32,218 bases of DNA from a virus (Duplodnaviria; Heunggongvirae; Uroviricota; Caudoviricetes). The position numbers and the translations under genes were made by a program. The notes below the pieces were generated by a model. The model saw only the letters and a program-made list of their open reading frames with translations. It had not been told where the DNA came from and did no database searches. This document shows, piece after piece, positions 18,247-28,386 of this stretch. Location of the stretch: IMG/VR virus record IMGVR_UViG_2534682164_000018; one strand, written 5' to 3'. The first letter of the stretch is position 1; every line of letters starts with the position of its first letter.

Positions 18247-20898
18247 ATGAGTGATATTTTCTCAGGAAGAGAATTATCAGTACAGTATAATGCTGATATT
18301 GGTAACAGAACACCACAGGGAGCAGGCAATGTAGTAATTAAACAGATTAATACTTTTCCAACCTTAACAATAAATTCAGAAGCAAATAATTTTGAAACGT
18401 ATGATAGTGATTACAGGACAGTACTACTATCTGATAAATCAGTAGCACCATTTGATATTGTAGTTAACTACCTACCTGATGATCCTACACATCAATTCTT
18501 GGATAATGCCGCTAAGTCTCAGCAGCTTTTCCAGATCATCATTCAGTACCAGATGAATAAGGATGAAAATACCATTACTTATGCGATGGTGAATGGTTAT
18601 ATCACCTCTTATAAGTTGGACGGTGATAAAGGTTCAGTAGTAACCAAGGCATACAGTTTTGCCCCACATGATGTGATCGCACGTGCAATGACCATTAACG
18701 CACTATCGCCAATCTATCAGGGGGACTACGGTTTAGGTTCGAACACTACGGATGTACCTCAGTACTCACCATCAGTACCTACGGGTAACAGCTTCATCAA
18801 AGTACCATCATCTCAAGCAGGCAATCCTGCCGGGGCGGATCTGATGGGAGTAGGGCTTGTAGATGGCACTACTGTAAGTTCTCTTGCGATGACAAAGACG
18901 GGTACTCTAAGTATCTATGCAAAGAACGCTACAACCGCCTGGACACGCATATATACCGCTACACAGATGGACGGGCGATACGTACCCCTTACACGTACCA
19001 TCAACGGCCATGCACTCACGGCCAATTTAGTACTGAACAGTGAAGATACAGGTTCAGTACCTGATACACGTACTGTGAATGGTAAGCCTCTAAGTGAGGA
19101 TGTAGTACTTACCAGTACTGATACCGGCTCTGTACCAGATACACGGACAGTTAATGGTCATGTACTCAGTGAAGATATAGTACTGAGTAGTGAAGATACA
19201 GGTTCAGTACCTGACACGCGTACAGTGAACGGTCATGTACTTAGTGAAAATGTAGTACTGAGTAGTGAAGATACAGGTTCAGTACCTGATACACGTATGG
19301 TCAACGGTCATGTACTCAGTGAGGATGTAGTACTTACCAGTACTGATGTTGGCTTAGGGAAGGTTACAGATGATGCCCAGCTTACGATAGCAGGTAATCT
19401 AAGTGATCTGGGGGACGTGGAAGAAGCACGTATTAACCTTGCTGTTTACTCAATGGATGAAGTAGATGCAGAGGTAACGGCTTTAGCTGACAGTATTACT
19501 TCCCTTGATTCCGCTTCCATGAAGAAAGCGAGTAACCTTTCTGATCTATCCAGTCTCTCTACAGCACGTACTAACCTACAGGTGAACCGTTTGACTCAGG
19601 GTGCTACGTACACCGATCTGATGAGTAATGACCTGACTAACCGTATCCGAATTCAGGATAACGGGGCATGGGGTGCAAGTACTGGTACTGGATGGATTGC
19701 TTTAGGTATAGGTCAGGGGGGGACAGGGGCTACAGATGCTTTGAGTGCTCGCCTAAACTTTCAGGTGGATCGCTTTAATCAAGGTAGTAATTTAACAACT
19801 ATTAAATCCGCTGATTCTTCCGCTGCATTAGTGGTTTATGATGGAGGGCAATGGGGTTCAGCTACATATATTGCGGGTGCTTTCACTGGCTGGAAAGCAT
19901 TAGCAATTCCGCAGGGCGGTACTGGTGTTAAGACTCAGGCTGAGTTATGGCCTGCGATTCGTCCTACGGGTGCAACTTCTTTAGCAGGAGATCCTGTCTC
20001 TGATTCTGACGCGACTACCAAACGCTGGGTTGAAAACTTGCTGAGTAGTCGTACTTCAGTTAGTCCTCAATGGGATGTTATTGCTTCTTCCCCTTCCTCT
20101 ACGGCAATTGGTAGTTATGTAACTGGAGGGCGTATTCGTTCGATATGCAACATTGGTACATCAACTGAAATATCTGGTGGTTTTCGGGTTGGTAAAACGA
20201 TGGGACAGACTGGACAGGCTGATCTCACCCTTTTTATTTCTGAAAATGGTGCAGAGGATAAACTATGGGGGCTAAAAGGGCCGACTGGAACGATCCTAAC
20301 TGATGTTCAATCAGGATGGATGACTAATACCGCTGTTTCGGGACCGACAGATGCCAATACCATCACCTTTAACGGTATGTATGCAGGGCCAGGTGACTCA
20401 GGTATTAACTATAGTGAAAAATATTCCCCTTTATTGCACATGCAAAGATACCCAGGGGCAAATCGCTCTCAGCTTCAGATAGACGGTGGTGGTACTTTAA
20501 GAGTACGAGGCGGGAACGGTACAACATGGTTTGGATGGTTAGTAATGCAAGCTCAAGGTACATCAGGTCGTGAGTTTAAAAGAGACATAACTCCAGCAAA
20601 TCCAGTTGAAGCATTAGATCGGATAATGTCACAAGATTTAGTAACGTTTATCTACAAGGATGATGAACAAGAAAGGGTTAGGTTTGGTGTTATCGCCGAA
20701 GATGCTGAGTTGACTGCTCCGCAGTACATTAAGCATGATGAAGAAACAGTTGAAATAGAAGGGGAGATTGTCACTCGTGATCATCCACGTGTTGATTTAA
20801 ATCCAATAGTGATGGACTTGATGGGAGCTATTCAAGCCCAACAAGAAGAAATTAATCAGCTAAAAGATTTAGTACAACAGCTATTAAATAATAAATAA
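18247..20898 (+). CDS. tail fibre with tail-tube-like N-domain, five 25-aa fibre repeats and C-terminal intramolecular-chaperone (peptidase S74-like) domain
   Basis: N-terminal 150 aa is paralogous to the 157-aa protein at 20957 (shared DIFSG...NTF...VNYLPD...HQ.L); repeats SVPDTRTVNGHVLSEDVVLTSTDTG; C-terminus ...EFKRDITP...RFGVIAEDAE... resembles autoproteolytic chaperone domains of phage fibres. Confidence 0.65.
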   Translation: MSDIFSGRELSVQYNADIGNRTPQGAGNVVIKQINTFPTLTINSEANNFETYDSDYRTVLLSDKSVAPFDIVVNYLPDDPTHQFLDNAAKSQQLFQIIIQYQMNKDENTITYAMVNGYITSYKLDGDKGSVVTKAYSFAPHDVIARAMTINALSPIYQGDYGLGSNTTDVPQYSPSVPTGNSFIKVPSSQAGNPAGADLMGVGLVDGTTVSSLAMTKTGTLSIYAKNATTAWTRIYTATQMDGRYVPLTRTINGHALTANLVLNSEDTGSVPDTRTVNGKPLSEDVVLTSTDTGSVPDTRTVNGHVLSEDIVLSSEDTGSVPDTRTVNGHVLSENVVLSSEDTGSVPDTRMVNGHVLSEDVVLTSTDVGLGKVTDDAQLTIAGNLSDLGDVEEARINLAVYSMDEVDAEVTALADSITSLDSASMKKASNLSDLSSLSTARTNLQVNRLTQGATYTDLMSNDLTNRIRIQDNGAWGASTGTGWIALGIGQGGTGATDALSARLNFQVDRFNQGSNLTTIKSADSSAALVVYDGGQWGSATYIAGAFTGWKALAIPQGGTGVKTQAELWPAIRPTGATSLAGDPVSDSDATTKRWVENLLSSRTSVSPQWDVIASSPSSTAIGSYVTGGRIRSICNIGTSTEISGGFRVGKTMGQTGQADLTLFISENGAEDKLWGLKGPTGTILTDVQSGWMTNTAVSGPTDANTITFNGMYAGPGDSGINYSEKYSPLLHMQRYPGANRSQLQIDGGGTLRVRGGNGTTWFGWLVMQAQGTSGREFKRDITPANPVEALDRIMSQDLVTFIYKDDEQERVRFGVIAEDAELTAPQYIKHDEETVEIEGEIVTRDHPRVDLNPIVMDLMGAIQAQQEEINQLKDLVQQLLNNK
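18991..19353 (+). repeat. five tandem 75-bp in-frame repeats encoding the fibre repeat
   Basis: Near-identical copies of acacgtac(a/t)gt(g/c)aa(c/t)ggtcatgtact(c/t)agtga(a/g)gat...ggttcagtacctgat read directly. Confidence 0.7.
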
Positions 20899-20956: not shown

Positions 20957-21430
20957 ATGGCTATGGATATTTTTTCCGGTGCTAACCTTACTGTAGAAGT
21001 AGGTTCAAGTGCTGGTAAAACAGTTGCTACTGACTTTGTAGAAGTACCAGAGGTAAACACCTTCAGTACTTCAGGCTTTGAAAGTACTGTAATTAGCGTA
21101 AAAACATTCAATAATGCTTATGATCGTAAGCTATTGGGTACTAAGTCAATCCCGGACATTTCTCTTGCAGTTAACTACTTACCAGATAATGCAGTACATC
21201 AGAATTTAGAACAACTTGCAGACGATCAGAAACGTTGTCAGGTAAAACTAAGCTATTTTACCGATGCAACTAAAAAAGAAGGTTTCTTTGTAATTTATAC
21301 CTGCTTTGTTTCAAGTACCACTATCGGTGGTGATAAAGATGAAGTAGTAACTAAGACTTTCACCCTTGCAGTTGATGGTGAAGCAATTGATTCAGGTCTG
21401 ATTACTCCAAAACCAGAATCGGGCGAATAA
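20957..21430 (+). CDS. major tail (tube) protein
   Basis: 157 aa, immediately upstream of chaperone and tape-measure genes, followed by a strong terminator; paralogous to the N-domain of the 883-aa fibre. Confidence 0.55.
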   Translation: MAMDIFSGANLTVEVGSSAGKTVATDFVEVPEVNTFSTSGFESTVISVKTFNNAYDRKLLGTKSIPDISLAVNYLPDNAVHQNLEQLADDQKRCQVKLSYFTDATKKEGFFVIYTCFVSSTTIGGDKDEVVTKTFTLAVDGEAIDSGLITPKPESGE

Positions 21431-21438
21431 TAATAAAT

Positions 21439-21470
21439 AAAGGGAAGGTGCTCAACTTTCCCTTTTTATT
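21439..21470 (+). terminator. rho-independent terminator after the major tail protein gene
   Basis: Stem aaagggaa / ttcccttt (8 bp) with 11-nt loop, followed by ttatt. Confidence 0.55.
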
Positions 21471-21536
21471 GGAGATGAAAATGAATTTAAACGAATTGAA
21501 GAAAAACTACAACCAGAATTAAAACCACATGAAGTA

Positions 21537-21779: not shown

Positions 21780-22174
21780 GAGGTGATATCGAATTAAAGT
21801 ACTTTTGTAAGATGGTTAACAAAAGAGGCTTATCACCTGAAGAATACTTTAGTTTAGATCCTGATGTACTCAATATGCTTATGATCTACGATACTTTTAT
21901 AGAACCATCCGGTACGCAGATTGAAATGATGAAACATGCGTACCAGTGTTACTACACCACTATCAGTAATGGCAACCTAACACCAGAAGCAAGGAAAAGT
22001 ATCAAGGTACAGGATTTTGATTTTCTTGATGTGCTTAGTGATAGTACTAAGAGTACTTCAGAGAAAGCTGAAGAAAGAAAATTAAAAACTAAAGAGGCTC
22101 AATCCAATGATATTAAATCTATAGGGGAGTTAATTAAATCTCAGGTATTAGGAAAGAAAAAGAATGGCAAATAA
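21776..22174 (+). CDS. T-like extension of the tail assembly chaperone, probably made only as a G-T fusion by -1 frameshift
   Basis: -1 frame is open from the slippery site to just inside the tape-measure gene; the track ORF from the ATG at 21812 may not be translated on its own. Confidence 0.45.
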   Translation, partial: VRGDIELKYFCKMVNKRGLSPEEYFSLDPDVLNMLMIYDTFIEPSGTQIEMMKHAYQCYYTTISNGNLTPEARKSIKVQDFDFLDVLSDSTKSTSEKAEERKLKTKEAQSNDIKSIGELIKSQVLGKKKNGK

Positions 22175-24377
22175 TAATAGAATACGTGTAGATATTACGG
22201 GTGATTCTTCCGGTTTACAGCGTGCTTTAAGGTCTGGTACTGAATCATTAGAGGAATTTGGTAGTACTGCTGGTGGCATTGTTGAAGAGTTCACAGGCCG
22301 AATAACTGGTATGGCTGGCGGGTTCGGTACTGCTATGACCGGGATCGCGGGTGCTGCGGCTATTGGTATTGGTGGCCTGGCAGCATTAGTAGAATCATCA
22401 CGTGAATATGTGCGTGAAATGAACCAGATCAGTAAGAGTACCGGATTGTCCGTGGTTCAGTTACAACAGCTATCAGCGGCGTTTAGTGGCCTCGGTCTTG
22501 AGATTGATAAGTTTGGTGATTTCAACAAGGATACCTTGGATAAGCTCGGTGATGCTTTTCGTGCTGGCGGTGGTGTATCCGATGATCTTAAAGAATATGG
22601 ACTCAACCTACAGGACTATAACAAGTACTTAAAACAGGCTGATGGTGGTATGCAGGCTGTGATCCACACCTTTTACGCCATGCGTGATGCAGGTAAATCA
22701 CAGAGTGAAATAGTTAACGTAATGGAAACGTTAGCCAGTGACTCAAGCCACATGATTAGTACTCTTCAGCAGTTCAATAATGAGGCTCAAGCTACAGCCT
22801 ATATCCAGTCACAAAATGCTGAAGTAACTAATGATGCTGCTGAAAAATATGCTGAATTCGATAAAAACCTTGGGAAACTTACTACCAGCATTAAAGGTAC
22901 TATTGCTGATGGCCTATCACCTTTAGTTAATGCCATGAACAGTGTCTATGATGCTGCAAATCAAAAACCTCACGAGGCAGGTTTGTTTGAAGATCTGAAT
23001 GAACGTATTAAAACTTCCAAGGGTTCTCTACAGGATATGTTGGATATCTGGGAAAAATTACGTACAGCAGGGGCATTAAACTACCAGGGTGCAGCACTCA
23101 ATACTGGCATCATGGATGATAAGGGCAACAAGGGTAATGAGTTCGCTCAGGCTAAGGCACGTTTAGAAGAACTGGCAAACAACCTAAAGTCCGATGTTGC
23201 GGTTGCTACCGCTCCTACTGGCGGATGGGTTGATCAGGCAAAAGAAGCTGAAGATGCAGCGAAGAAGTTAGAACAACAACGTAAACAGGCAGAAGCGGCA
23301 CAAAAGGCGGCAGATGCAAAACGCCTACAGGCTCAACGTAATCTGGAAGCTGCTCTTGCTCAAGTTGGGGAAGATGGTTTTCAGGTACGTCTACAGCAGT
23401 TCGACAGACAACAAAAGGCACTTCTTAAAACCATCACCGATAGTGCTCAAGTACTCGGTATCAATCCTGATGAAATGCTAAAGAACGCTACTGCATATGG
23501 TGCTAAACAACGTACTGATTTACTGAATTCAATGGTTGGTTATCAAGATCCTAATCAGGGTCTGAAAGATACCAATGCTCTTATTGGTTCCGGTCTACTC
23601 AATGACAATCAGAAGGGGTATCTGGCACAGCAACAGAATCAGCGTATCAATGGTGGTAATCCATTAGCCTATAACGATACCGATCAGAAGTTGAAAGATA
23701 ACGCTGATGCTATGAATGCTGAACTTCAGCAGAATGAGTTGTTGCTGAAAGGCCATGAGGACTATGAGAAACGTAAAGCTGAGATCACGGCAAAGTACAA
23801 TGCACAGGCCATCCAAATCAGTAACCAGAATGCACAGGATCAGTTAAGTATCTTCTCAAGTACTGCACAGTCACTATCACAGGGCATGGTTGATGCGTTT
23901 GGGGAAAGTAGTGGGGCTGCACAAGCTGCATTTACCCTAAGTAAGAGCATAAGCATTGCACAGACAGTACTTTCAATTCAGTCAGCATTGGCCCAAGCAC
24001 TCGCTACCCCTTGGCCAGCTTCATTGGCAAACTATGCACAAGTACTTTCACTTGGTATGTCGATTATTAGTACTGCAAAGGGTGCTGCTGCTGGTCAGTT
24101 CCATGGCGGGGTAGATGAACTACCAGCAAGTTATGACAACAAATCATTTGTACTTAAGCAGGGCGAGAGAGTGGTGCAGCCTGAAGCGAATAAGAAATTA
24201 ACAGCATTCTTGGATAAACAAGAAGGTGGAAGTACTTCAGGTGATATTACCGTTAACGCACCATTGATCATCCAGGGTGATGTAGCTGATGATGACAAGA
24301 AATTTAATGAGATGCTTAAGAAACACGCCAATAGTGTTTCTCAAGCTGTGAGAAGTAGTCAAAAACGTAATACATAA
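22164..24377 (+). CDS. tail tape measure protein
   Basis: 737 aa, Ala/Gly/Gln-rich and coiled-coil-like, in the canonical position downstream of G/GT. Confidence 0.8.
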   Translation: MANNNRIRVDITGDSSGLQRALRSGTESLEEFGSTAGGIVEEFTGRITGMAGGFGTAMTGIAGAAAIGIGGLAALVESSREYVREMNQISKSTGLSVVQLQQLSAAFSGLGLEIDKFGDFNKDTLDKLGDAFRAGGGVSDDLKEYGLNLQDYNKYLKQADGGMQAVIHTFYAMRDAGKSQSEIVNVMETLASDSSHMISTLQQFNNEAQATAYIQSQNAEVTNDAAEKYAEFDKNLGKLTTSIKGTIADGLSPLVNAMNSVYDAANQKPHEAGLFEDLNERIKTSKGSLQDMLDIWEKLRTAGALNYQGAALNTGIMDDKGNKGNEFAQAKARLEELANNLKSDVAVATAPTGGWVDQAKEAEDAAKKLEQQRKQAEAAQKAADAKRLQAQRNLEAALAQVGEDGFQVRLQQFDRQQKALLKTITDSAQVLGINPDEMLKNATAYGAKQRTDLLNSMVGYQDPNQGLKDTNALIGSGLLNDNQKGYLAQQQNQRINGGNPLAYNDTDQKLKDNADAMNAELQQNELLLKGHEDYEKRKAEITAKYNAQAIQISNQNAQDQLSIFSSTAQSLSQGMVDAFGESSGAAQAAFTLSKSISIAQTVLSIQSALAQALATPWPASLANYAQVLSLGMSIISTAKGAAAGQFHGGVDELPASYDNKSFVLKQGERVVQPEANKKLTAFLDKQEGGSTSGDITVNAPLIIQGDVADDDKKFNEMLKKHANSVSQAVRSSQKRNT

Positions 24378-24387
24378 GAAAGCCCAG

Positions 24388-24861
24388 TTAGGGATTTTCC
24401 GTGTGATAAGACAAATATTGTGAAAGAGAAGATGAAAGGGTATAGAGATTGTAATACTCTTCCCGCAATAATTTAACTTTAGGTGGTGAGTATTTAATAT
24501 TGTATGCAAGCTGTGTTGAAAGAGTACGTAATCTCGATAATGAATAATAACTCTTTACGATGGCATCTACTTCTTTTTTTGGGAGTGATGCTAATTTTTC
24601 TAATTGGGAATAATATACATCATCATGCAAATAAGAAACGGCAGTTGCTACTCTTTTAATAGCTTCTGTATCTTCAGTTGGAAGAGGAATACATATTTCA
24701 TATGTGCCTAACACCTGAGACTCATCGCCACCAGTAGCAAGAGCTAAAAGGTTATTGTTGATTTCGCTCAATAAGATTACACGCATCTTAAAAACATCAT
24801 CTGAACTTTCTTTCCATTTATCATATGCGTTATAGCCTATTTGGCCTGCAAATAACAACAT
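24388..24861 (-). CDS. hypothetical reverse-strand moron inside the tail module
   Basis: 157-aa ORF fills the 583-bp gap between tape-measure and distal tail genes on the opposite strand; no recognised motif. Confidence 0.4.
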   Translation of the reverse strand: MLLFAGQIGYNAYDKWKESSDDVFKMRVILLSEINNNLLALATGGDESQVLGTYEICIPLPTEDTEAIKRVATAVSYLHDDVYYSQLEKLASLPKKEVDAIVKSYYSLSRLRTLSTQLAYNIKYSPPKVKLLREEYYNLYTLSSSLSQYLSYHTENP

Positions 24862-24960
24862 AGCAACGATGACGGATGCAGCCTGCCAATCAAGCCTGTT
24901 AAAAAAATACGAATCGAGGTTTTTAAATAAATAAAGAAAGAAGATATTCGAGGTAACAAA

Positions 24961-25518
24961 ATGGCATCCTTTTCAAATCAAATAAAAGTAACGAACTTTC
25001 AAATTAAAAGTACTGAACCGATCTATTCTAATCAAACATGGACAGGTCAACGTATCATGAGAAGTACTGGAATTCAATACTATCAAATTCAGTTCACCCT
25101 TAATTTTAATCCTGCATCACTAAATGAAGTGAATAGCTTTTTAGCTCAATATGCACAGGGCAAACCTTTCACTATGTCATTGGGGCTTGCAGGTACATAT
25201 TACGGTAAACAGACTGGTGCAGTAACCGCTACTGCTCTCACTAAACCGGGTAATATGGTTGTACCTATCAGTACTAACACATTAGCTGTGGGTGAGTGGG
25301 TACAGTTTTCCAATCACAATAAGCTATATCGAATCGTAGAACGTACCAGTACTTCAATTACTATTTTCCCTGCTCTACAAAATACAGTACAGGCAAGTGA
25401 AGCACTCAAATATAACAATCTCATGATCGAGGCTGTATTAGATCCAGACAATGATTATTCATTGCCTATTGGGAACATCATGAATATTACATTGAAAGCA
25501 ACGGAGAATATCATCTAA
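24961..25518 (+). CDS. minor tail protein (lambda gpM-like)
   Basis: YQIQFTLNFNPASLNEVNSFLAQYAQGKPFTMSL resembles the gpM pattern YSVTLSVPREEATVLESFLEEHGGWKSFLW (recalled); position after tape measure. Confidence 0.45.
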   Translation: MASFSNQIKVTNFQIKSTEPIYSNQTWTGQRIMRSTGIQYYQIQFTLNFNPASLNEVNSFLAQYAQGKPFTMSLGLAGTYYGKQTGAVTATALTKPGNMVVPISTNTLAVGEWVQFSNHNKLYRIVERTSTSITIFPALQNTVQASEALKYNNLMIEAVLDPDNDYSLPIGNIMNITLKATENII

Positions 25519-26140
25519 TGGACTCAGGTATATATACTAATGCTAATCTTCTTAAGTACTGGAAGTTAGTCAGAGGTACAACCAAGACAAGATTAACACT
25601 AATGGAAATTATGAGCTTAGGCGTTAATGTTACTTGTTTTGATGTACTACCAAAAGGTACTAATGGTTTTCACTGGACGGATTCACTAATTGATATAGAT
25701 CTGGATGGTTATAAGTACATAAGTTTCCCCGACATTATCAGTGGTTCATTACCTTCATATTCTGAACAAAAGGGCATGTCTAATGATGCTATCAATTTTA
25801 AAATTAGCAATGTAAACGCCTCGGTTCGTGCTCTTGCCCTTGGTGGTTTCTTGAAAGATGCACAGATGAATATCAAGTTAGTAATTCTCAATCCATATGA
25901 TAGTACTGTAATTGATTCAATGCTCATGTTTACGGGGTTTATTGACTATGTACAGGCAGTAACTGATCCAAATCAGAAGCAAAACGAAATGACTATATAT
26001 GTGAATTCTGTCTATAAGAAATTAGACAGACAACCTGCATTAATTGCCGCCAACTCAGTATATCAATCTTACTATAGAAATGATGAGTACTTTAGTCTGT
26101 TAGGTCAAGTTAATCAAAATCAGAACTGGAAATACAAGTA

Positions 26141-27050: not shown

Positions 27051-27141
27051 TAGACTGGCCCCCTGAATCTCCAGACAACCAGTATCACTTAAATAAGTGA
27101 TAGTCTTAATACTAGTTTTTAGACTAGTCATTGGAGTACAG

Positions 27142-27507
27142 ATGATTGATGTCTTAGGGCCGGAGAAACGCAGACGGCGTACCACACAGGAAAAGATCGC
27201 AATTGTTCAGCAGAGCTTTGAACCGGGGATGACGGTCTCCCTCGTTGCCCGGCAACATGGTGTAGCAGCCAGCCAGTTATTTCTCTGGCGTAAGCAATAC
27301 CAGGAAGGAAGTCTTACTGCTGTCGCCGCCGGAGAACAGGTTGTTCCTGCCTCTGAACTTGCTGCCGCCATGAAGCAGATTAAAGAACTCCAGCGCCTGC
27401 TCGGCAAGAAAACGATGGAAAATGAACTCCTCAAAGAAGCCGTTGAATATGGACGGGCAAAAAAGTGGATAGCGCACGCGCCCTTATTGCCCGGGGATGG
27501 GGAGTAA
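27142..27507 (+). CDS. insC: IS2 InsC (orfA)
   Basis: Same translation as the copy at 11699-12064. Confidence 0.9.
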
Positions 27508-28370
27508 GCTTAGTCAGCCGTTGTCTCCGGGTGTCGCGTGCGCAGTTGCACGTCATTCTCAGACGAACCGATGACTGGATGGATGGCCGCCGCAGTCGTC
27601 ACACTGATGATACGGATGTGCTTCTCCGTATACACCATGTTATCGGAGAGCTGCCCACGTATGGTTATCGTCGGGTATGGGCGCTGCTTCGCAGACAGGC
27701 AGAACTTGATGATATGCCTGCGATCAATGCCAAACGTGTTTACCGGATCATGCGCCAGAATGCGCTGTTGCTTGAGCGAAAACCTGCTGTACCGCCATCG
27801 AAACGGGCACATACAGGCAGAGTGGCCGTGAAAGAAAGCAATCAGCGATGGTGCTCTGACGGGTTCGAGTTCTGCTGTGATAACGGAGAGAGACTGCGTG
27901 TCACGTTCGCGCTGGACTGCTGTGATCGTGAGGCACTGCACTGGGCGGTGACTACCGGCGGCTTCAACAGTGAAACAGTACAGGACGTCATGCTGGGAGC
28001 GGTGGAACGCCGCTTCGGCAACGATCTTCCGTCGTCTCCAGTGGAGTGGCTGACGGATAATGGTTCATGCTACCGGGCTAATGAAACACGCCAGTTCGCC
28101 CGGATGTTGGGACTTGAACCGAAGAACACGGCGGTGCGGAGTCCGGAGAGTAACGGAATAGCAGAGAGCTTCGTGAAAACGATAAAGCGTGACTACATCA
28201 GTATCATGCCCAAACCAGACGGGTTAACGGCAGCAAAGAACCTTGCAGAGGCGTTCGAGCATTATAACGAATGGCATCCGCATAGTGCGCTGGGTTATCG
28301 CTCGCCACGGGAATATCTGCGGCAGCGGGCTTGTAATGGGTTAAGTGATAACAGATGTCTGGAAATATAG
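27465..28370 (+). CDS. insD: IS2 InsD transposase
   Basis: 301 aa; one residue differs from the other copy (Asp versus Gly in ...AELD(D/G)MPA...). Confidence 0.9.
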
Positions 28371-28386
28371 GGGCAAATCCAGTGGT

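Follow-up and report, generated by a model that had tools for sequence, protein, structure and literature searches.

The gap between the tape measure protein (TMP) gene and the distal tail protein (DTP) gene of the prophage analysed here holds a reverse-strand gene that extends beyond the open reading frame (ORF) first reported there, as it does in relatives, where it encodes 190 aa. This 190-aa frame is under strong purifying selection, including the codons upstream of the ATG first taken as its start. The DNA analysed, referred to below as the window, is the whole stretch of 32,218 nucleotides from IMG/VR virus record IMGVR_UViG_2534682164_000018. The best explanation of the whole, which is given an even chance of being correct in all its parts, is that the gene is moron-type cargo encoding an inner-membrane protein that likely protects the lysogen, and that the frameshift seen in the window is artefactual. 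In the proposed mechanism, a moron-type gene would sit in a fixed, exchangeable slot between TMP and DTP of a defective, IS-riddled siphovirus-type prophage. The intact gene would give a 190-aa bitopic inner-membrane protein, whose basic N-terminus (~25 aa) would be cytoplasmic and whose single transmembrane helix leads to a ~145-aa helical bundle, predicted to be periplasmic. Its family, the small phrog_3829 family, would be carried as accessory cargo by unrelated phages, in slots of their tail operons, as well as by a conjugative element and integrative islands, and the protein would guard the lysogen at the inner membrane by hindering DNA entry from incoming phages.

The cargo gene, its limits and its interruption in the window

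The plus strand of the window carries a late operon of siphovirus type, and the features at and around the junction are given below.

20957-21430, plus strand: major tail protein, followed by tail assembly chaperones
22164-24377, plus strand: TMP (tape measure, 737 aa), phrog_13674 at E 5e-86, left flank of the hotspot
24378..24399: imperfect hairpin GAAAGCCC AGTTA GGGATTTTC, left edge of the slot, directly after the TMP stop
24388..24861, minus strand: 157-aa ORF as first drawn, with ATG start, the longest ORF in the TMP-DTP gap
24388..24959, minus strand: full cargo gene, TTG start at 24959-24957 and TAA stop at 24390-24388, 572 nt here
24826..24882, minus strand: predicted single transmembrane helix, residues 27-45, AASVIVAMLLFAGQIGYNA (Kyte-Doolittle)
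24837..24959, minus strand: 40-aa ORF, the true N-terminus MLPRISSFFIYLKTSIRIF and then out-of-frame residues past the homopolymer
24901-24907: frameshift site, A7 run (T7 on the coding strand), A8 in seven near-identical sequences
24923..24936: AT-rich motif, window variant of the (T)TATAAATAC box, right edge of the slot
24961-25518, plus strand: DTP, phrog_1302 at E 8e-17, right flank, followed by tail-tip genes

The sequence-only reading described a 583-bp gap filled by a 157-aa reverse-strand ORF with no recognisable motif. The gap measures exactly 583 bp from the TMP stop to the DTP start, and the ORF exists and is not a product of chance, as its homologues and dN/dS indicate, but its limits were drawn wrongly and the gene encodes 190 aa. 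The 157-aa ORF is the C-terminal 83% of the cargo gene, and its ATG sits in the middle of the transmembrane helix, where it corresponds to the invariant Met34 of the family alignment. No Shine-Dalgarno sequence was found upstream of this internal ATG at 24861. The 33 codons upstream of it are spread over two frames in the window, with FNRLDWQAASVIVAM... in the frame of the 157-aa ORF, while the first 19 residues of the 40-aa ORF agree with the N-termini of homologues P0003 and P0001 and the Citrobacter homologue also begins like MLPRISSFFIYLKTSIRIF. All relatives (P0002, P0003, L012-14, L016, L022, L027, L011, L059) have an open frame of 190-191 aa; the gene is 572 nt long in the window because one homopolymer base is absent. 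The start codon lies 1-9 nt from the DTP ATG in relatives and is mostly TTG, with ATG in L016 and L022; the TTG of the window (24959) is 1 nt from the DTP ATG. This abutting codon is the sole canonical start upstream of codons 22-33 and has AAGGA upstream at a 7-nt spacing. The result is a corrected gene model for a membrane-protein family that annotation pipelines repeatedly shorten at an internal Met. A scan of 23500-25800 against Rfam returned no RNA family.

Homologues of the cargo protein range from 45 to 100% identity and occur in Shigella, Klebsiella, Dryocola, Buttiauxella, Citrobacter and Enterobacter. Among 5.8 billion proteins searched, five clusters matched at 58-100% identity, and the full-length clusters, at 190 aa, are 33 residues longer at the N-terminus than the ORF first drawn. 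Over the full length, comparison with the copies from Citrobacter and Enterobacter (~80-86% identity) gives a dN/dS of 0.09-0.13; with the Dryocola copy (59% identity) it is 0.07-0.22. Codons 22-33 have a pN of 0 and a pS of 0.44-0.75 against the Citrobacter and Enterobacter copies and are therefore translated; their third-position changes in the alignment include Arg AGG/CGA, Ser TCC/TCA/TCG/TCT and Ile ATC/ATT/ATA. A chance antisense open frame in a non-coding spacer would account for an AT-rich 157-aa ORF that has no family match and no promoter or terminator call. This explanation was rejected, and its probability is negligible, given the dN/dS of 0.09-0.13 with many synonymous third-position changes, the same architecture kept in remote homologues and a confident AlphaFold2 (AF2) model from 13 sequences only.

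The interruption of the gene in the window comes from an A run that is one base shorter than in seven near-identical sequences, namely Shigella sonnei short-read contigs L006-L009 and IMG/VR isolate contigs L012-L014. In these seven the run is A8 and the 190-aa frame is open throughout; the window is otherwise the same, and there the shorter run splits the gene into the 40-aa ORF and the 157-aa ORF. Compared with L006, L012 and L013 over 14.5 kb, the window has 0 substitutions and four single-base homopolymer indels, as follows.

21462: T5 in the window, T6 in relatives; intergenic
21501: A5 in the window, A6 in relatives; tail assembly chaperone ORF shortened from 99 to 80 aa
24900: A7 in the window, A8 in relatives; cargo gene split
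29772: A5 in the window, A4 in relatives; tail-tip gene J split into 28345..29796 and 29759..30697

Three of the four differences thus break genes (tail assembly chaperone, cargo gene and tail-tip J), and the window is the odd one out at every one of the four sites against at least three independent assemblies. Real divergence is expected to bring more substitutions than indels, by about tenfold in E. coli mutation-accumulation data, and miscalled A/T runs are a classic error mode of long-read or pyrosequencing assemblies. Zero substitutions with four homopolymer indels make assembly error the likeliest cause, and indels only, all of them in homopolymers and in both directions, are the signature of homopolymer miscalls. 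The comparison of assemblies suggests that the frameshift is probably a sequencing or assembly artefact, and the source organism probably carries an intact cargo gene. Either homopolymer errors or slippage mutations in its assembly turn at least three genes into false pseudogenes. Viral and metagenome collections contained no second instance of the exact T7 form, and a metagenome scan for the exact T7, T8 or T9 site gave no match.

A genuine frameshift, which would make the cargo gene a pseudogene in this strain as part of the decay of a dead prophage and leave the 157-aa ORF without function here, is rather unlikely but has several observations on its side. The prophage is defective, with IS2 interrupting the terminase gene (10836-12109) and a tail-tip gene (27051-28381) and with IS21-family and IS3-family elements also present in the window, and most of the homopolymer differences disrupt genes. 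Other S. sonnei assemblies also seem to have an insertion in cargo codon 11: contigs L006-L009 all end at 24927/24928, within codon 11 and the AT-rich box, and these breaks are probably an IS insertion, which suggests that the cargo gene is dispensable in S. sonnei. However, four indels without a substitution over 14.5 kb are unlike neutral mutation, all four lie in A/T runs of 4-8 bases, and the window alone deviates at each of them. Programmed -1 ribosomal frameshifting or transcriptional slippage on T7 would yield the full 190 aa with one Phe-to-Leu change; the TTG frame reads AUU UUU UUA, which contains U_UUU_UUA, a canonical X_XXY_YYZ heptamer, and a -1 move restores exactly the family frame. 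This possibility is very slight and was rejected, as the two-frame arrangement is not conserved. Relatives all have a single frame and do not need a shift, L016 has T6 at this site and L022 lacks the run, no stimulatory structure is evident, and the three other homopolymer differences in the window have no such rationale.

An exchangeable slot between TMP and DTP

The TMP-DTP junction was surveyed with DTP as the probe, and the spacing between the two genes was measured in each of 35 related IMG/VR loci. Its states were as follows.

20 loci: junction empty, 31-129 bp
1 locus: junction of 257 bp with a 54-aa plus-strand ORF alone, counted as empty (21 in all)
6 loci: cargo family, 190-191 aa, 45-99% identity
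4 loci: multi-pass membrane protein of 208-225 aa, Pfam DUF6216 (E 1e-23)
4 loci: GHSLG protein of 260-280 aa, Pfam DUF726, alpha/beta-hydrolase-like
1 locus: IS1

The cargo genes at the junction are all opposite in strand to the tail genes. The states are mixed along the gradient of DTP identity, with DUF6216 at 96%, the cargo family at 91%, an empty junction at 90% and DUF726 at 86%, and this interspersion indicates that the slot has been refilled repeatedly. The sequence-only reading had proposed a moron, to be checked by comparative genomics at this site; cargo present in some close relatives and missing in others favours that proposal (6 and 21 of the 35 contigs, respectively), and wherever a gap of ~584 bp occurs the ORF is kept as a coding frame. 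The divergence of the cargo is decoupled from that of the flanking tail genes. Compared with L016, the ORF is 63% identical, DTP 91% and the TMP C-terminus 93%; compared with Buttiauxella prophage L059, the ORF is 85% identical and DTP 71%. A moron in a tail operon is unsurprising to a specialist, and the value of this one is as a well-supported candidate for functional work.

Four alternative occupants and the empty state share the same edges. At the left, TMP and cargo converge with 10 bp between their stops. The hairpin at 24378-24399 sits at this spot, has the cargo stop in its loop and folds at -9.9 kcal/mol on the plus strand. Its stem is perfect, GAAAGCCC-N5-GGGCTTTC, in L015, L016, L025 and L039, whatever the cargo. 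At the right, the (T)TATAAATAC box is found ~30-40 nt upstream of the DTP ATG and is conserved in occupied and empty junctions; the variant in the window lies ~25-38 nt upstream of the DTP ATG and overlaps cargo codons 8-13 (FIYLK). What is new in detail is the definition of this slot with three unrelated reverse-strand occupants, together with the corrected model of the family gene, and the slot has at least three unrelated and unstudied occupants.

Morons in the Juhala/Hendrix sense are recognised by patchy presence, their own promoter, their own terminator, a distinct composition and expression from the prophage (PMC3594210). The cargo gene is not distinct in composition: its GC content is 34.4%, close to the 35-37% of the adjacent distal tail genes (DTP 36.9%, next tail gene 34.6%; TMP 43.9%). 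A scan of 24000-25700 showed no consensus sigma-70 promoter for the minus strand, and neither did a relaxed scan of the 470 nt upstream (minus strand, 24860-25330). Only a weak extended -10 candidate (TGATAGTAT) was seen, at 25077-25085 on the minus strand inside the DTP gene. As the cargo start abuts the DTP ATG and leaves no intergenic room, a promoter of its own would have to be within the DTP gene. A consensus scan called no intrinsic terminator, the hairpin at 24378-24399 included. The first ~400 bp of the DTP gene may hold the cargo promoter on their antisense strand, and the cargo would presumably be expressed from the prophage.

The best clue to the position of this promoter comes from two decayed remnants, in both of which ~400 bp of DTP are kept upstream of the cargo gene. 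In Citrobacter (L001-L004; 17 contigs from several samples) and in Enterobacter (L005), the cargo gene lies outside any prophage, with its 190-aa ORF intact between truncated or frameshifted TMP and DTP. By tblastn, the left flank is a C-terminal TMP fragment (residues 617-737 in Citrobacter, 662-737 in Enterobacter) and DTP is broken into frameshifted pieces; the Citrobacter remnant also keeps 80 residues of the next tail gene. Both remnants are 1.2-1.8 kb long and centred on the cargo gene, equivalent to 24012-~25779 of the window in Citrobacter and 24147-25370 in Enterobacter. One is near modABC and the other near mipA/prkA, and the different chromosomal sites and deletion end points show that the two are independent. 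An intact cargo gene after decay of the prophage is the signature of a host-beneficial function.

The protein and its family

The cargo protein is likely to be located in the inner membrane, as judged by one predicted helix with a positive N-terminal flank in all 14 family members. By Kyte-Doolittle analysis, each of the 14 has one hydrophobic segment, with a net charge of +1 to +6 on the N-terminal flank and near 0 on the C-terminal flank, so an N-in/C-out orientation is predicted by the positive-inside rule. An AF2 model built with 6 close sequences was unusable (pLDDT 46), and an alignment of 13 sequences was used instead, which gave an all-helical model with a pLDDT of 78 and a pTM of 0.63. 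The model has a short N-terminal helix, a long helix (25-76) that continues beyond the membrane, a poorly predicted loop that bears a conserved GGD...C-I-P-L-P stretch, and three or four further helices (98-125, 128-152, 159-187). The modelled protein is a membrane-anchored helical bundle. Residues F37, E66 and N70 (SEIxxN motif), L126 and Y138 are invariant across the wide family, and in remote homologues that start at an ATG of their own a basic N-terminus precedes NW(E/Q)A(A/S)SVI. Foldseek gave no significant match in PDB or BFVD; what it listed were generic bundles of four helices, FAT domains among them (E >= 0.09, TM < 0.55).

The family is small. In an exhaustive HMMER profile search, only 10 of 1.84 billion representative proteins reached E < 1e-3, and a second profile search, of the 5.8-billion set, gave 11 clusters, every one annotated as "hypothetical". 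Among 185,579 species, each represented by one genome, the close subfamily occurs in 2. The claim that the ORF has no recognisable motif is true of its truncated form, which has no match in Pfam, PHROG, NCBIfam or PADLOC, but full-length relatives do match phrog_3829. This PHROG matches 9 of 13 family members (best E 6e-27), among them P0003 (86% identical to the protein of the window) at 4e-5; its function is unannotated in PHROGs v4, so that membership assigns no role to the cargo family. The 157-aa ORF of the window has no phrog_3829 match at E <= 0.1, since most of the match falls in the N-terminal region, which is lost or frameshifted there. Searches of Pfam, NCBIfam, PADLOC and PDB sequences with the cargo protein gave no annotated match, with nothing below E 0.15 in the PDB sequence profile search. 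The DNA of the region had no match in E. coli complete genomes (near), phages (distant) or plasmids (near), and tblastn of the 157-aa ORF and of distant member P0017 against phages also gave none.

More distant members of the family are found in several kinds of mobile DNA. P0008 is again an opposite-strand gene at a TMP-DTP junction, in this case of a more distant phage. P0016 is flanked by traC and traU within the transfer module of an ICE-type element, ~7 kb from a GmrSD-like gene, and P0007 is chromosomal and next to a Sel1-repeat protein. P0017 is in an integrase-bearing island and adjoins a DUF4238 protein (PADLOC DUF4238-Pers, E 2e-19). The single-gene type of DUF4238 protects against T7 (Rousset et al. 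2022, PMC9122126). The defence neighbours of distant members amount to this DUF4238 gene, one methyltransferase (MTase)-like gene and the GmrSD gene ~7 kb away, a thin basis for a defence-island context. A multi-gene system was considered, as L001, L005 and L050 share a 331-aa protein, a DUF2188 protein and a 236/99-aa MTase-like protein. It was rejected: the arrangement of these genes differs, prophage copies lack them and the neighbours have no useful annotation. Because of the variable arrangement and the absence of these neighbours from prophage copies, the cargo gene is treated as stand-alone.

P0016 is ~30% identical to a "hypothetical protein" in 13 P2-like phage records. This homologue belongs to the same phrog_3829 family (hhalign probability of 97% and E 3e-11 against the family profile), and its deposited start is an internal Met, with an upstream ATG and Shine-Dalgarno sequence that give the full basic N-terminus. 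It sits between a tail fibre assembly gene and sheath gene FI, which is taken here to be the slot of Z/fun in P2 itself.

Function and comparison with known systems

Accessory genes within the structural operons of phages have proved to be a source of new anti-phage and host-conversion functions. By analogy with HK97 gp15 (described below), the favoured function of the cargo protein is superinfection exclusion, or else some other anti-phage action on DNA entry; this has somewhat less than an even chance of being right. Searches of Pfam, PHROGs, NCBIfam, PADLOC and PDB, and of PDB and BFVD with Foldseek, found no homology of the cargo protein to any characterised exclusion or defence protein. 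A wider proposal, in which phrog_3829 and its relatives form a new class of single-gene inner-membrane exclusion factors acting from the periplasmic face and the TMP-DTP junction is a cassette slot not described before, with a resident antisense promoter, is speculative and rather doubtful. If it holds, one type of exclusion factor would be common to siphoviruses, P2-like phages and conjugative elements and directed against DNA delivery machines. Promoter-less reverse-strand cargo (the cargo family, DUF6216 and DUF726) would then plug into an antisense promoter in the 5' end of DTP, which would explain why each of the two remnants still has ~400 bp of DTP ahead of the gene.

The retention of the gene has also to be weighed under other functions. 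An intact gene in two decayed remnants means that the host benefits, in whatever way, and would also fit a lysogenic-conversion or host-fitness factor that is not concerned with phage exclusion, such as an envelope modifier, a stress protein or a protein akin to conjugation entry exclusion. The distant member between traC and traU in an ICE transfer module speaks for such a role, and known entry-exclusion proteins are also small inner-membrane proteins. The recurrent slots in phage tail operons and the DUF4238 neighbour lean towards an anti-phage function instead, and no virulence or envelope-enzyme signature was found, so that a host-fitness factor is considered unlikely. An abortive-infection effector acting in the membrane is less likely still, at a low probability. 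A role in the lytic cycle of the phage itself, whether in lysis (i-spanin-like or holin-like) or in aiding tail assembly or DNA injection, is suggested by the predicted type II topology with a ~150-aa helical periplasmic domain, which resembles that of Rz-type i-spanins, and by the position of the gene beside TMP. This role is highly improbable, as the gene is missing from 21 of 35 related phages with the same tail module, lies on the strand opposite to the late operon and is intact in remnants that are unable to lyse cells or build tails. The lysozyme gene is elsewhere, ~6 kb away in the intact relative L011, and neither a lipoprotein partner nor a spanin or holin match in PHROG or Pfam was found. 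An Rz-like i-spanin was rejected on the lack of a lysis cassette or o-spanin partner and the same absence from relatives.

The favoured function in exclusion can be compared with several known systems. A recent survey places a hotspot for accessory and defence genes among the tail genes of P2 (PMC13586616). The TMP-DTP slot differs from the P2-like hotspots in belonging to a siphovirus-type group and in that its occupants are not validated defence genes; it resembles them as a fixed slot between core genes at which unrelated accessory or defence genes interchange (PMC9122126; PMC13586616). HK97 gp15 is the original moron; its gene adjoins the TMP gene and is expressed from the prophage, its product is an inner-membrane protein (PMC3594210), and it blocks genome injection in a tail-dependent manner (Cumby et al. 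2012, summarised in PMC3594210). The cargo protein has no similarity to gp15 in sequence or fold, gp15 being much smaller and YebO-like. The HK97 gene lies between the tail assembly chaperone and TMP and has its own promoter and terminator, whereas the cargo gene occupies the TMP-DTP junction, is on the opposite strand and has no recognisable ones. The two are alike as accessory genes of a tail operon next to TMP, with a small inner-membrane product, homologues outside prophages and patchy presence. P22 SieA and lactococcal Sie2009 are inner-membrane proteins, encoded by prophages, for which a block of genome entry has been proposed. Pfam, PHROGs and PADLOC gave no homology of the cargo protein to Sie proteins, and P22 SieA is polytopic, unlike the cargo protein; Sie2009-type proteins are similar to it in size and in its predicted type II topology.

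Occupants and edges of the tape measure-distal tail junction

The junction between the tape measure protein (TMP) and distal tail protein (DTP) genes, which holds the membrane protein cargo gene in the window, also houses reverse-strand cargo unrelated to this 190-aa family in relatives. Among the related IMG/VR loci, these occupants are as follows.

Other occupants of the TMP-DTP junction
L015, L025, L038 and L039, about 3330-3990, reverse strand: DUF6216 multi-pass membrane protein, 208-225 aa
L017-L019 and L041, about 3030-3990, reverse strand: DUF726-like protein with a GHSLG motif, 260-280 aa
L023: IS1

The DUF6216 and DUF726-like proteins are candidates for putative accessory or defence functions; PADLOC returned no match for either. 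Both edges of the junction carry elements that occur with and without cargo, namely a GC-rich hairpin immediately 3' of the TMP stop and a conserved (T)TATAAATAC box that precedes the DTP ATG by 30-40 nt (24923-24936 in the window; about 3930-4000 in the empty junctions of L020-L037). Read on either strand, the box is similar to a -10 element (in several loci the complement is TATAAT), and it may be a promoter internal to the late operon or a regulatory site.

Position 1 of four independent S. sonnei short-read contigs (L006-L009) corresponds to window 24927/24928, a point inside both the cargo gene's codon 11 and the AT-rich box that precedes the DTP gene. Because the four ends coincide within 1 nt, insertion of an IS or other repeat at 24927/24928 is suggested in these strains. 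In the homologue cluster P0001, 38 members are labelled 'partial'.

Insertion sequences, homopolymer differences and a tail-tube-like protein

Several mobile elements and further genes are located elsewhere in the prophage.

Additional features of the window
358-912 and 1959-2702, plus strand: two HNH endonuclease genes (PF13392, PF01844) in the prophage early region
5125-7094 and 30703-31901, both minus strand: IS21-family element (IstA/IstB-like proteins, 390 aa and 266 aa) and a further transposase pair of the IS3 family
10836-12109, minus strand: IS2 copy truncating the large terminase gene
18247-20898, plus strand: gene for an 883-aa protein, just upstream of the tube gene
27051-28381, plus strand: IS2 copy inside the tail-tip gene; target duplication of 5 bp

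An IS load of this kind is typical for Shigella. The truncated large terminase ORF (12196..13656) aligns to the ATPase profile from position 109 onward, and the IS2 copy in the tail-tip gene is missing from the isolate contigs L012 and L013. Given that IS2 disrupts both of these genes, the prophage is defective.

Single-base homopolymer lengths (at 21462, 21501, 24901-24907 and 29772) are the sole differences between the window and the near-identical S. sonnei and IMG/VR contigs, with 0 substitutions over 14.5 kb. The change at 21501 shortens the tail assembly chaperone ORF to 80 aa, versus 99 aa in L006 and the relatives L010 and L011, and that at 29772 breaks the J-like tail-tip gene into 28345..29796 and 29759..30697. 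Homopolymer errors of the source assembly are probably behind these differences.

The 883-aa protein seems to be a paralogue of the tail-tube protein that carries a fused fibre-like extension. Its N-terminal ~140 residues are major-tail-protein-like, matching the L010 and L011 tail-tube genes at 31-35% identity, and are followed by about five tandem ~25-aa repeats (TRTVNGHVLSEDVVLSSEDTGSVPD). The L006 counterpart matches Peptidase_S74, which is an intramolecular chaperone.

Start sites and island contexts of the cargo family

The annotated starts of family members in L061 (4028-4573, equivalent to Peduovirus P2 NC_070906.1 16012-16557) and P0005 are internal methionines inside the transmembrane helix. 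In both, an in-frame start further upstream (in the P2-like phage an ATG that has a Shine-Dalgarno sequence, in Dryocola a TTG) gives back the conserved basic N-terminus and the complete helix; the reading frames therefore indicate that the family is systematically mis-annotated at its 5' end.

Three islands also carry family members.

Islands with family members
L001 (Citrobacter): 2525-3521
L005 (Enterobacter): 3250-4273
L050: 2214-4147

These members share only 26-28% mutual identity across island types. Even so, the islands have neighbour genes in common, which encode an unknown protein of 331 aa (72% identity), a protein with DUF2188 (63%) and an MTase-like protein of 236/99 aa (75%). Gene order varies from island to island. 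The three islands may thus share a common backbone with a variable slot.
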